Positions 1,353-15,938 of a stretch of DNA of 64,000 nt are shown here, piece after piece (position 1 is the stretch's first letter; every line of letters starts with the position of its first letter). The position numbers and the translations under genes were made by a program. The notes below the pieces were generated by a model. The model was given only the letters and a program-made list of their open reading frames with translations, ran no database searches and was not told the origin of the DNA. This DNA comes from Dictyostelium discoideum (Eukaryota): NCBI GenBank assembly GCA_000004695.1, contig CM000150.2, forward strand, positions 3,712,001-3,776,000, written 5' to 3'.

Positions 1353-4300
1353 TTAATTATTATTATTATTATTATTATTATTATTATTATTATTATTATT
1401 ATTATTATTATTATTATTATTATTATTATTATTATTATTTTTATTATTATCACAGTCACTATCATTAATATTATTATTATTATCATCATGATCATCATTA
1501 TTATTATTATTATTATTATTATTATTATTATTATTATTATTATTATTATTATTATTATTATTATTTTTATTTTTTTTTTTATTTTTTTTATCTTTATCAT
1601 ATATAATATTATTTATATCATATTTTTTTAATAAGTGTTTTAAATATTTTGATAAATAATCAAATGTTGGTCTTTGTGAAGGATTTTTACTCCAACAACG
1701 TGTAACAATATCAGATATATCAGTATCTTTAAAAATTTCTTGATCTAAAGAAGGTCTTTCATTTTTAAGTACTAATTCTCTTATTCTCCAGTGTGGCTCC
1801 GAATAATATGGTATTCTTTCTGAAAATAATTCATAACAGAGCATGCCAAACGAGTAAATATCAGTTGATTTAGTGTAAGAACCTTGTGATAGAATTTCAT
1901 TACTCATATATGCAACAGTACCTCTTCTAGTTTGAAGATTATATCTTTCATTGGTTTCTTTTGAAAATGGTATTAAAAAATAAAATAAAATAAATTAGAA
2001 TCATCAAACTAAAAATTAATAAATAATAAATAAACATACCTTTACTTGTACCGAAATCTGATACCTTTGCACAAACTAAAGATTTTGGATTCAAAGAAGT
2101 AATTAATATATTCTCTGGTTTTAAATCTCTATGAGTAATACCATTTCTGTGAAGATATGCACATGCTTTTGAAATATCAATTAAAATTCTATAAAAAAAA
2201 AAAAAGAGTTAATATTATTTCAAATCTTTTTTTAAAAAAAAAAAAAAAAAAAAACTTACCTAATTTTTTGAATAATTGTTATTTTATACTTATTTTCATG
2301 AATATATTTACTTAAACAACCTTTTGAACAATAATCTGTTACAATACCATGAATACCAGAAAAAATAAATCTACCCACATATAATAGTATATTTGGATGT
2401 CTTAATCTTTCTAAAAGTGAAATTTCTTTTTCAATTTCATCATGATCAACATATTCATTTTTAAGTAATTTAACTGCAACTGGTGATGATCTCCAAATAC
2501 CACGATAAACTATACCAAATGTACCTTCTGAAATATAGTTTTTAATTATAATTTCATTAAAATCTATTATATTAGTTAATTCACTCTCTAAACGAAGGAA
2601 AACAAATGTTGACCATGATTGCTTTACATCCAATGTTTCAAATCGAACTATTACTTTTTCATTATACTATATATTATAGTTAGTATAATAATAATAATAA
2701 TTTTTTTTTTTTTTTTTTTTTTTTTTTTTTTTTTTTTTTTTTTTTTTTTTTTTTTTTAAAAAAATAATTACCTTTGTAGTTGAAAATAAAGTAACTGATA
2801 ATGAAATTGAAGTTTCAACATTTGGTTTTAATTCAATAGATTGAAAAGGTGAACTTGTTATTGAACTATCATCACCTTCTGGGAATAAAAATAATGCATA
2901 TAATGGTTCACTTAACTTATTTTTAAAAGTGATAGTATCATGACAAACTTCACCAAGATCGGATTTTCTACCATTCATTCCAAAATCACAAATATATGGT
3001 GATACTGATACAGGTAAATCTGGATCATTACAATGTTGGAATATTGTATCTGCAATTAAAACATGTGTTTGAGTATTGGTTCTATATTTACCACTTTGTC
3101 CATTTCTATTTTTATAAGTTTTTAAATAATGTTCTAATGGTATTTCATTGGTAACAGGGTCAAGTAAAATATCAATAATATTTAAAGGATTTTCAATAAA
3201 ATCACCATGAGCTAATGATGGAACTAAATGAGGACTTGGTATTTTACTTTTTTTATACTCGAAAAATTCTTGATCAAAAGTATTTCTTTCAAATTGTCTA
3301 ACAAATAATTCACCCTCTGCTTCAATTTTAATATTTCCACCTCGTATAATATTAATATAATCTTCAACATCATCTTCATTTAATTCTGCACCATCACTTG
3401 AATCATCATATTCATCACTATAATCTTCAAAAAATGGTTCATTATTATTTATAATTGGTTTAATTTCTAAATTTTCCATTTCTAATGTTACATTTGTTTG
3501 TAATATTGCTCCTGCTGCTGTTGTTGTTGTTGTTGTTGTTGTTTCTACTGTGGTTGGTTCTAAATTATTATTTTCTGATTGTGTTTGAATATCAGAATTT
3601 CTATTTACTGTTATTGATATATGATTTGATGATGATTGTTCTTGATTTGAATTTATAATTAATGGTGTTGATGGTACTGGTGATTTATTATTTGATGGTT
3701 TCTTTGAATATAGTTCAACACCAAAAACAGCTATTTCAAGTCTTCTTCTTTTTTTATGTTTATAATATCTGGCACCAAAGAATACAATTAATATGGATAA
3801 TAAAACAAGTACTGTAACACAAATTGGAACAATTATTGGTAATAGATTTATTTTTTCAACTGGTATTGGATATTCAATTACAAGTGATGAATAAATTGCC
3901 ATTGATGTTAAGTATGTATTACCTCTTGTTGCAAATGAAATATTTATATTTTCCAATGAGTTGATATTATCGAAATTGAATGTTAAATTTTTGAAAATTG
4001 GTGCTGAATTACTCTCTAATGGTTCCAATAAGAATACTGGTTGATTTTCAATATAAATTGATAATGGTGTTGGTTGATCATCAATTGGTTGATGTATAAA
4101 AAATAATTGAATTTGATAATACTTTGTTTCACTATCAATTCTTGTTGTTATAGTTACTAATTCATTTGAATTAATTGATGTTATACCATTTAAAAATAAT
4201 TCATTAAGGTCATTTGATATATTTAATTTTGGTAAATTTGTTATATATTTTATATTATTTGAAATTGTACAATTATTGCTATTATCATTACTACTAATAC

Positions 4301-14300: not shown

Positions 14301-15938
14301 GCGTATTGTTGACCAAAGAAAGAATCACCATTTGAGTTTATATTTGGTGAAATTGAATAAATACCATTACCTTGATTACCATAATCCATATTATTATTAT
14401 TATTATTATTATTATTATTATTATTATTATTATTATTATTATTATTATTATTATTATTATTATTATTATTATTATTATTATTATTATTGTTATTATTATT
14501 ATTATTTTGATCAACATCCAACGAAGCCGTATCGATTTTTACAAGTATATAAGAATTGTTTGAAGATTGAATTGACTCTGTACCATATTGAGCGATTATA
14601 TTTGAACCTGATTTACTCGAAATTAAACTGTTTGATATTATTACATTTGAATCAAATAAAACCAATGGTGATCTTGTCAGATTGTCTTCAAAAAATGCAC
14701 AACCATCTATTGTAACATTTTTTGAGAATTCAATATACAACGAGCTTCTGAATCTTTGGTTTGTTCCCATTATTATATCAGTAACTTGATTCGGATCATT
14801 TGGAGAGAATATTAACTTTGTATCATTATAGGGTTCATTTGTGGTGAAACCTAGATTTTTAAAAAACATATTTTTAAAATATACATTTGAATCACCTGTT
14901 ATATAAATTGACCCTTTGGTTGTTTTCCCCTTCTTTAAGATATTTGTTGGAGAGACATTCTGATCTCTGTCAACTTCAATTAATACTCTGATGATTTTGT
15001 CATTCTCTGATATTGGTAGGCAATCTAATAATGAAAGAATCTTTCTTTCTAAATCTGAACTAAAACTACAATAAAATCCTAGAGGATATAATTCTGTAAA
15101 TATTCTAATAGTCTGATTAATTTTATTCATTGGTGAAAATGGTGGACTTATCTCTATCGATGAATTACTAATACGGTCTGCTCTATATACTAATGATTCT
15201 TTCGCAACTACTGAAATTGTACCACCCAATACAAGAATACCTGGAAAGAACCCAAAAGGATCCTTTGGGAAATCTGGATTATTATAAATGTGTAGGGGAT
15301 CATTTTCGTCATAAAACTCTATTCCTGCTTCACTTTCAAATCTTCCGCCAGGAAGAATAATTAAAGAATTAATAGTAAAAAACATACTACCTTTGACAGT
15401 AAAGCTCCCCTCAACGCACACAGCAACGAAATTGTAGGTTGTACCAAGAGATTCTGACTTGAATAATAATGATGAATCTATATTAATAAATTTATAGTTA
15501 GTTATTTATAATAATAATAATAATAATAATAATAATAATAATAATAATAAAAACTACTTTTTTGGATGTAAATACTATTAGGCCCATCTGAGTTGAAACC
15601 TGGAAAAAGAAAAGGGAAAAACTCATCAACCCCAGGAATAATATCATTTCTAAGTGCATTTCTGCAAACATCAGGGTAATATAAATCTGTATCTTGAGAT
15701 GATTGATATTCTGTAATATGTGGATACCTTTTGTGACGTGTTAAATTATAATATCCAGGAGGGGTTCTAATTAAATCTTCTAAAAATGATTATTTAAATA
15801 TTAAAATAAGTAAAATTTTTTTTTTTTTTTTTTTTTTTTTTTTTATAGAGACAAAGAAAAAATATTACCTTCTGCAAATAAAAAGCTAAAACAAAATATT
15901 ATTATTGTTATTAATTTAATTAAGATTTTATTTATCAT
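11386..15938 (-). CDS. Paralogous receptor-like kinase with the same G8/beta-helix ectodomain, a transmembrane helix and a divergent (pseudokinase-like) cytoplasmic kinase domain. About 1321 aa; GDT-family-like
   Basis: Eight exons on the minus strand: 15938..15869 (MINKILIKLITIIIFCFSFLFAE, a signal peptide), 15779..15558, 15477..12875, 12795..12709, 12639..12547, 12460..12141, 12027..11882 and 11810..11386. Donors include GTAATA, GTAGTT (weak), GTGAGT, GTAAGT (three times) and GTAAGC; the total is 3966 nt. It shares long collinear motifs with the first kinase gene (TPPGYYNLTR vs [10 protein letters not shown]; DPFGFFPGILVLGGTIS; NQRFRSSLYIEFS; IIAQYGTESIQSSNN; [34 protein letters not shown] is almost identical). 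The ectodomain contains 38 consecutive Asn encoded by (AAT)38 and a (PTET)n linker before the transmembrane helix. The kinase domain has AVAVKKF and DFG, but the Gly loop is replaced by LPSKVYVFKG, HRD is replaced by HGD, and APE is replaced by PNE. Confidence 0.7.

Follow-up and report, generated by a model that had tools for sequence, protein, structure and literature searches.

Introduction

The GDT family of Dictyostelium discoideum comprises Gdt1, Gdt2, Gdt4, Gdt6, Gdt8 and Gdt9 as well as the kinase-less members Gdt5 and Gdt7. According to PMC8262924, Gdt1 and Gdt2 negatively regulate the growth-differentiation transition, and gdt2- and gdt4- cells exhibit a reduced sensitivity to polyphosphate. 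In the GDT literature searched, the ectodomain is described only via an in-house hidden Markov model (HMM) and not as a G8/beta-helix ectodomain, and a DG1041 neighbour is not mentioned. The present analysis deals with the three adjacent genes gdt2, DDB_G0269850 and gdt8 in a stretch of 64,000 nucleotides (nt) from chromosome 1 of D. discoideum AX4 (GenBank assembly GCA_000004695.1, contig CM000150.2, positions 3,712,001 to 3,776,000; hereafter the window, to which all coordinates refer). The two outer genes are themselves members of the GDT family and show no difference from it. With its annotation already in place and gdt2 having been studied before, this locus is not in itself a discovery.

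The product of the middle gene, DDB_G0269850, resembles the DG1041 family (AX4 'DG1041 family protein', ~977 amino acids, aa) in size, signal peptide and hydrophobic tail; no function is recorded for any member of this family in the sources searched. With regard to domain composition, the closest described proteins are CEMIP, TMEM2 (CEMIP2) and those of the PKHD1L1 type, which combine G8 and PbH1 domains. A hydrolase or lyase activity of the pectin-lyase fold has been proposed for TMEM2 and CEMIP. The Dictyostelium proteins lie below the Pfam thresholds for G8 and Beta_helix and have no GG domains, and, unlike in CEMIP, TMEM2 and PKHD1L1, the module is fused to a tyrosine kinase-like (TKL) kinase or to a glycosylphosphatidylinositol (GPI) tail. 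The combination of a kinase with a kinase-less protein carrying a homologous ectodomain is also found in plants, namely for the LysM receptor kinase CERK1 and the GPI-anchored CEBiP/LYM proteins, where the LysM ectodomain binds glycans; FERONIA with LLG1 is a further plant receptor kinase with a GPI-anchored partner. Fold and lineage of these plant pairs are, however, unrelated to those discussed here, and the partnership was shown biochemically in plants, whereas for Dictyostelium it is inferred only from homology and gene adjacency.

Results

The region has a G+C content of 16-32%, and its long open reading frames are broken by short AT-rich introns. An earlier note, made from the sequence alone, had placed three genes here. 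All three models close without any internal stop codon and with canonical introns only (GT..AG, 69-113 nt), with outer boundaries and strands exactly as given there:

1353..6689, minus strand: gdt2 (Gdt2, DDB0220631), receptor kinase of 1637 aa with an intact TKL kinase; 6 exons (6689-6623, 6541-6314, 6229-2772, 2666-2260, 2188-2040, 1957-1353)
6690..7483: divergent intergenic region of 794 bp between the start codons of gdt2 and DDB_G0269850, presumed bidirectional promoter
7484..10655, plus strand: DDB_G0269850 (Q55CZ0), DG1041 family, 1026 aa; exons 7484-7538 and 7630-10655
11386..15938, minus strand: gdt8 (Gdt8, DDB0220636), receptor kinase of 1321 aa with a degenerate kinase; 8 exons (15938-15869, 15779-15558, 15477-12875, 12795-12709, 12639-12547, 12460-12141, 12027-11882, 11810-11386)

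The trio represents a single copy of an old block that underwent several duplications in the lineage of D. discoideum. The recurrent layout is a GDT gene on the minus strand standing head-to-head with a DG1041-like gene on the plus strand, followed tail-to-tail by another GDT gene on the minus strand. The orthologous trio was found in D. cf. discoideum and D. dimigraforme, and GDT genes next to DG-like genes were found at the following loci:

L002, D. cf. discoideum: Gdt4 orthologue / DG-like gene / kinase-less GDT of 733 aa / Gdt6 orthologue
L003, D. cf. discoideum: orthologue of AX4 Gdt3_ps / (DDE transposase) / DG-like gene / GDT of 1561 aa
L004, D. discoideum strain: Gdt9 / DG1041 itself
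L001, D. purpureum: GDT of 1611 aa head-to-head with a DG-like gene
L007, Acytostelium subglobosum: GDT (ectodomain HMM E 7e-36, plus kinase) head-to-head with a DG-like gene

The core head-to-head pair is older than the split of group 4 from Acytostelium. In D. purpureum, in Acytostelium and at each of the four loci examined in the D. discoideum group, the two genes keep this orientation, with a spacer of 0.5-1.6 kb between them. The head partners are the 'active'-type kinases Gdt2, Gdt3, Gdt4 and Gdt9, and the tail partners include the degenerate Gdt8 and Gdt6. In neighbour-joining (NJ) trees every D. discoideum copy lies inside the D. purpureum outgroup. The NJ tree of the DG family, ((A,B)61,C)100,DG1041)92, and that of the head GDTs, ((Gdt2,Gdt4)62,Gdt3)40 with Gdt9 outside, are congruent, which fits with a block duplicating as a unit. 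The kinase tree of the kinome paper, ((Gdt4,Gdt2),Gdt9),Gdt8 (PMC1420674), agrees with the tree of the head GDTs. The same paper counts AX4 Gdt3 among the pseudogenes (Gdt3_ps; PMC1420674), and at L003 a DDE_1 transposase gene (8335-9673 of that locus) is located between the D. cf. discoideum Gdt3 orthologue and its DG1041-like partner. An adjacency considered for Cavenderia fasciculata was rejected, as the neighbouring kinase there is without a GDT ectodomain.

Within the 794 bp separating the start codons of gdt2 and DDB_G0269850, an alignment with D. cf. discoideum and D. dimigraforme unveiled a conserved block of ~170 bp (~7311-7470) adjoining the ATG of DDB_G0269850, with the rest of the region being unconserved. 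The block includes GTGTCTTGTAGAGGGAC and CAGATTT.GCAGATTTCGT and has neither an Rfam match nor a counterpart at the paralogous loci; a promoter or 5′ untranslated region element is the probable interpretation.

The explanation preferred here combines the old GDT/DG1041 block with a ligand-sensing kinase and a GPI-type partner. Alternatively, the linkage might be historical only, with a tandem duplication of the ectodomain, a gain or loss of the transmembrane-kinase part in one of the copies and later segmental duplications, and with DDB_G0269850 acting independently of the GDT kinases, for example, as a developmental surface, adhesion or matrix protein. The congruent trees and repeated layouts support block duplication, in Cavenderia and Heterostelium the genes are no longer, or only loosely, adjacent, GDT and DG1041 proteins are, at only ~21% identity, long diverged, and the block upstream of DDB_G0269850 is not common to the paralogous loci; the family name 'DG' (developmental gene) might also hint at an independent role. 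However, the head-to-head orientation with its short spacer has persisted from Acytostelium to the D. discoideum group, and gene order is generally expected to decay in these fast-rearranging genomes. A merely historical linkage is thus a possibility which we take seriously, yet hold only tentatively, beside the preferred reading of a sensing kinase with a GPI-type partner.

In each of the three proteins, a G8-like module is combined with a right-handed parallel beta-helix of the CEMIP/TMEM2 type and with membrane-proximal domains that are rich in beta structure. The individual regions are located as follows:

5880-6335, minus strand: G8-like region of Gdt2 (aa ~92-215)
5145-5732, minus strand: right-handed beta-helix of Gdt2 (aa ~265-460)
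3861..4385, minus strand: membrane-proximal ectodomain block of Gdt2 (aa 714-888), with the conserved motif at 4014-4121
13565..14113, minus strand: membrane-proximal block of Gdt8 (aa 561-735), with the conserved motif at 13715-13822
7872-8219, plus strand: G8-like region of DDB_G0269850 (aa ~100-215)
8442-9074, plus strand: beta-helix of DDB_G0269850 (aa ~290-500), followed by C-terminal beta-rich domains

The G8/beta-helix character, which had been predicted from sequence motifs, is visible to profile and structure methods only. The Pfam check that had been suggested for it gave no match: G8 (PF10162) was not found in Gdt2, Gdt8, DDB_G0269850, P0076 or P0084 at E up to 10, and neither PbH1 nor Beta_helix was found in any of the three ectodomains at the same threshold. 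A search of PDB sequence profiles with the DG1041 alignment likewise yielded no match. A DG1041 profile, built from 20 family proteins, retrieved 92 proteins from 1.84 billion representatives; those that are distant align at profile positions ~103-430. When distant matches were scanned, ten of ten contained Pfam G8 in register and seven of ten CEMIP_beta-hel (PF24606). The HMM of the GDT ectodomain matches the same G8 proteins directly (43-85 bits, HMM positions ~81-470), and the D. purpureum homologue of the middle protein is named 'G8 domain-containing protein' in UniRef. The predicted three-dimensional structure superposes on solved right-handed parallel beta-helices (pectin-lyase fold). 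The literature searched on the G8 domain in Dictyostelium contained nothing relevant. The assignment of the GDT ectodomain to the G8/CEMIP type, which was not found in the literature searched, is considered modestly new.

The structure comparison also bears on the question of whether these ectodomains are enzymes. Polygalacturonases, GH110, GH87, alginate lyases, epimerases and phage depolymerases were the best structural matches, TMEM2 (in the PDB 'Cell surface hyaluronidase') matches over 500 residues, and charged residues within the helix are invariant in each family (DRYP, KRSFG and GTEQF in DG1041; NQR..R and GTE in GDT). All of this would suit polysaccharide hydrolases or lyases of the cell surface which act on glycans of bacteria or of the matrix, with the GPI protein being the main enzyme and the GDT kinases reporting the state of the substrate. 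Yet, characterised enzymes are no more than 5-15% identical to the ectodomains, and attempts to map a catalytic motif were unsuccessful. Moreover, beta-helices also occur as pure binding modules, with the adhesins PfbA, Vag8 and pertactin appearing in the same structural match lists, and being fused to a kinase is what characterises a receptor. We consider the enzymatic explanation improbable and retain the one of ligand-sensing receptors with a GPI-type partner.

DDB_G0269850 possesses a signal peptide, but neither an internal transmembrane helix nor a kinase domain. Its C-terminus (10557-10652, plus strand), ...NAASSVLSSKT-LFYLIFFYFIIYFFL, follows the pattern of a GPI signal, in which …GLNAASSVLSSKT and LFYLIFFYFIIYFFL provide a small-residue site, a spacer and a hydrophobic end. 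Going by this sequence pattern, the protein is probably GPI-anchored. Its annotated counterpart Q55CZ0, to which the translated model is 100% identical over the full length, is listed as 'uncharacterized'. The protein groups with the DG1041 family (53-83% identity); it shares 53-59% identity over the full length with the AX4-group DG1041 paralogues, which have the same size, a signal peptide and a hydrophobic C-terminal tail, and 53-55% over 94% of its length with the cluster containing the AX4 'DG1041 family protein'. A kinase-less GDT, as considered in the earlier note, is ruled out for this gene: its identity to GDT ectodomains is 21%, whereas the kinase-less Gdt5 and Gdt7 share 38-71% with kinase-bearing GDTs in the N-domain. 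DDB_G0269850 belongs to a separate old sister family, DG1041, which shares its whole ectodomain design with the GDTs. A search of the literature for DDB_G02698xx identifiers or DG1041 found nothing, and one for other gdt names added nothing new; on a part of Gdt8 or DDB_G0269850 in the growth-to-differentiation transition, the literature searched yielded no statement.

The homology and collinearity of the three ectodomains, which had also been proposed, are borne out at the level of profiles. By BLASTP the relationship of Gdt2 to DDB_G0269850 is barely detectable (E 1e-3). A profile-profile comparison of GDT and DG1041 (hhalign) gave a probability of 91% over the N-terminal 400 columns, and with more diverse alignments it reached 98.4% (E 6e-15) over 726 collinear columns at 21% identity, aligning Gdt2 112-888 with DDB_G0269850 128-969. 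What stands of the earlier description of the middle gene is hence a kinase-less, probably GPI-anchored protein with a homologous and collinear ectodomain; a recent kinase-less paralogue of the GDTs it is not.

Both kinase genes share the motif YYQIQLFF(I/T)H(Q/L)... in the membrane-proximal block, with 32 of 36 aa and 92.6% of the nt being identical. From this near-identity, which is confirmed, a recent duplication had been concluded, which is not. Across the entire GDT family no block is more strongly conserved than this motif (the consensus of 27 sequences begins QIQLFFTHQPID), and the identity of Gdt2 and Gdt8 is by BLASTP 35% in the N-terminal 450 aa, 59% in the membrane-proximal block and ~30% in the cytoplasmic part. 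On the family alignment the two proteins share 40% in the N-domain and 63% in the C-domain, where ectodomain identity across the family is 40-63% and the family background of the C-domain 55-63%. Gdt2 groups with Gdt4 and Gdt8 with Gdt7 in this alignment and its NJ tree. Each gene of the trio has its own orthologues: for gdt2 these share 86% identity in D. cf. discoideum and 71% in D. dimigraforme, for DDB_G0269850 82% and 74%, and for gdt8 74-89% and 50-67%. As the motif is conserved throughout the family, as there are separate orthologues of each gene and as the C-domain identity equals the family background, the gdt2/gdt8 duplication is old. A recent duplication of the whole gene, as deduced from the motif, was rejected on account of the 40% N-domain and ~30% cytoplasmic identity and the family-wide occurrence of the motif.

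The same data speak to the idea of a recent local triplication with an active receptor, a copy with a dead kinase and a decoy without a kinase as its products, corresponding to gdt1/gdt2. Besides the nt identity of the motif, it could draw on the 50-residue motif area, in which Gdt2 has slightly more identity with Gdt8 (75%) than with Gdt4 (69%), as would also fit a short conversion tract. Such a gene-conversion tract between gdt2 and gdt8 is possible, though unproven. Against a triplication stand, in addition to the low identities outside the motif, the separate orthologues of each gene in two other species, the grouping of Gdt2 with Gdt4 and of Gdt8 with Gdt7, the membership of the middle gene in another family at 21% identity, and the fact that the outer genes are Gdt2 and Gdt8, not Gdt1. 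Already refuted by divergence and orthology, a recent triplication has next to no chance of being correct, and the trio is better regarded as one copy of the old GDT/DG1041 block. As a separate observation, the neighbours Gdt4 and Gdt6 of the L002 block are only 47% identical in the N-domain, compared with 84% in the membrane-proximal block and 94% in the motif area, which looks like a gene-conversion pattern much clearer than that of gdt2/gdt8.

In both outer proteins, hydropathy analysis and Pfam identified an N-terminal hydrophobic signal, one internal transmembrane helix and a C-terminal kinase domain. Together with 15-16 N-glycosylation sequons per ectodomain, the following features were located:

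3774..3848, minus strand: transmembrane helix of Gdt2 (aa 893-917), hydropathy peak 3.21 over 19 residues
13361..13435, minus strand: transmembrane helix of Gdt8 (aa 779-803), hydropathy 2.97, preceded by a (T-E/Q-T-P)n linker
1644..2546, minus strand, three exons: kinase domain of Gdt2 (aa 1292-1541), PK_Tyr_Ser-Thr E 8.3e-53, profile positions 3-257 of 258
11500..12403, minus strand: kinase domain of Gdt8 (aa 1045-1284), PK_Tyr_Ser-Thr E 1.9e-45, match beginning at profile position 15
1356-1589, minus strand: poly-Asn tail of Gdt2, C-terminal of the kinase domain

Signal peptide, extracellular gdt domain, single transmembrane helix and C-terminal eukaryotic protein kinase domain, the features of the GDT family, are thus present in both. 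The proposed architecture, in which the ectodomain is joined via one helix to a TKL-type kinase, is confirmed by the single helix and by the kinase matches (E 8e-53 and 2e-45), and the assignment of both genes to the GDT-family TKL receptor kinases by the kinome supplement. Over their first ~400 aa and in the columns of the kinase motifs, the outer proteins are identical to the Gdt2 and Gdt8 rows of kinome Table S2 (PMC1420674), and the kinome kinase alignment columns are consistent with the exon junctions of both gene models. The naming rests on this supplement (PMC1420674), since neither AX4 Gdt2 and Gdt8 nor close orthologues were found in a large protein database by search and exact look-up. 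That database did return the entry of the middle gene and more distant GDTs; orthologous genes are called at the loci L005 and L006, without Pfam on record. In the protein search Gdt2 had its best relatives in Gdt4 (DDB_G0270550), Gdt9 and Gdt5, and Gdt6 and Gdt7 were reached through cluster members; the identities span 37-46% (41-46% for Gdt4, 37% for Gdt9). The family and gdt2 had been named correctly in the earlier note, but its degenerate gdt1 is here Gdt8. A comparison of kinome motifs identifies Gdt1 as a different gene outside the window; its kinase motifs are ALLK / QKTLRARN / DLT, annotated with 'multiple insults' (PMC1420674). Another assignment, gdt2 and gdt3 as the flanking genes, was dropped, as the kinome table gives Gdt2 and Gdt8 and the Gdt3 orthologue sits at L003.

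The Gdt2 kinase exhibits a complete set of catalytic motifs, including an S-E-G-T-F-G loop, the VAIK Lys, the HRD Asp, the Asn and DFG, and is marked 'kd, a' in the kinome table (PMC1420674). In the Gdt8 kinase the glycine-rich loop is missing and HGD replaces HRD, while VAVK, the catalytic Asp, the Asn and DFG are kept (HGDIKPDN); the table marks it 'partial kd, aq' and 'lacks G52' (PMC1420674). Of the expected pair of an intact and a dead kinase, the intact Gdt2 and the degeneration of Gdt8 hold, but, with Lys, Asp, Asn and DFG retained, the activity of Gdt8 should be called 'questionable' rather than demonstrably dead. AX4 Gdt8 is also short of ~175 mid-ectodomain residues; the loss is in frame, with the junction at 14108-14113 just upstream of the membrane-proximal block, and the alignment shows these residues retained in the orthologues P0021 and P0014 from two D. 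cf. discoideum strains, in Gdt2 and in Gdt4. Furthermore, a poly-Asn insertion of ~40 residues starts at aa 422. Together with the absence of the glycine loop, the mid-ectodomain loss and the poly-Asn insertion suggest a decaying or specialised receptor.

Some further observations concern the two kinase genes and their surroundings. The cytoplasmic segment preceding the kinase (Gdt2 aa ~1146-1290, ~2550-3090; Gdt8 aa ~897-1040) is conserved between Gdt2 and Gdt8 and is also kept in GDT-like genes of D. purpureum, Acytostelium and Heterostelium, with tblastn matches beginning at Gdt2 aa 1146-1171. Without any Pfam match in Gdt2 and Gdt8, the segment may be an undescribed intracellular domain. 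Intron 3 of gdt2 (2667-2771) contains an A-run of ~60 nt and intron 6 of gdt8 (12028-12140) a T-run of ~70 nt; such homopolymer runs are ordinary for Dictyostelium, and it may be due to them that reading frames seem to continue into the introns. A 593-nt inverted repeat with 98% complementarity (16331-16923 and 21514-22106) lies next to the trio. The left of its two arms duplicates the 3′-terminal 189 codons (ERAP1_C domain, 98.4% aa identity) of an M1 aminopeptidase gene (~19170-22083, plus strand). Situated ~390 bp upstream of the gdt8 start codon, this copy resembles a partial inverted duplication of recent origin or a gene fragment. The remainder of the 64-kb window holds no extra GDT or DG copies or pseudogenes, an Rfam scan of positions 1-17000 found no RNA family, and a tRNA scan found none.

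Discussion

With the fold and the gene pairing at hand, the following scenario can be drawn for the locus. The G8/beta-helix ectodomains would bind an extracellular cue, glycan-like or polyanionic in nature, that reports food or cell density; a ligand of this kind is expected because the fold is the carbohydrate-binding and -processing fold of CEMIP/TMEM2 and polysaccharide lyases. Gdt2 would turn this binding into kinase signalling which restrains the growth-to-development transition, its published genetic role. DDB_G0269850, transcribed from the 0.8-kb divergent promoter that it presumably shares with gdt2, would be a kinase-less partner on the same ligand, either in capture and presentation or as a decoy, analogous to CEBiP/LYM beside the LysM receptor kinases. 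Such a partner is the most economical role for DDB_G0269850 because of the shared divergent upstream region and of the same ectodomain without a signalling part. Gdt8 would serve as a weak or non-catalytic modulator. From homology and the conserved gene adjacency, a co-receptor or decoy role of DDB_G0269850 is plausible. For the explanation as a whole, that is, an old GDT/DG1041 block together with a ligand-sensing kinase and its GPI-type partner, we see the chances as evenly balanced.

Several points weigh against it. The functional steps for DDB_G0269850 and Gdt8 are all inferred. The pairing is not universal, as the neighbouring kinase in C. fasciculata has no GDT ectodomain, and in Heterostelium album a GDT-like kinase is 7 kb away with three genes in between. 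Node support in the head clade of the GDTs is weak (40-62%), and block duplication alone accounts for the paralogous pairs within D. discoideum. With regard to the fold, Pfam recognises neither G8 nor a beta-helix in any of the three ectodomains, the structure model of DDB_G0269850 has a mean pLDDT (predicted local distance difference test) of only 60, and the beta-helix fold is equally typical of polysaccharide-degrading enzymes and of binding proteins.

A more far-reaching version would see the GDT kinases as hard-wired in pairs with GPI-anchored DG1041 proteins, as an independent amoebozoan counterpart of LysM-RLK/CEBiP, and as the missing sensor of food, prestarvation or polyphosphate which times the switch from growth to development. 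In this full form we regard the idea as unlikely.

The head-to-head pairing of GDT and DG1041 genes, which recurs at several of the duplicated loci and in social amoebae that are only distantly related, was not found in the literature searched and may be new. For the GDT family, recognising the 'extracellular gdt domain' as G8 plus a beta-helix of the CEMIP/TMEM2 type points to glycans or polyanions as ligands. The pairing names candidate partners for the GDT kinases in sensing the end of growth, which at this locus would be DDB_G0269850 for Gdt2.

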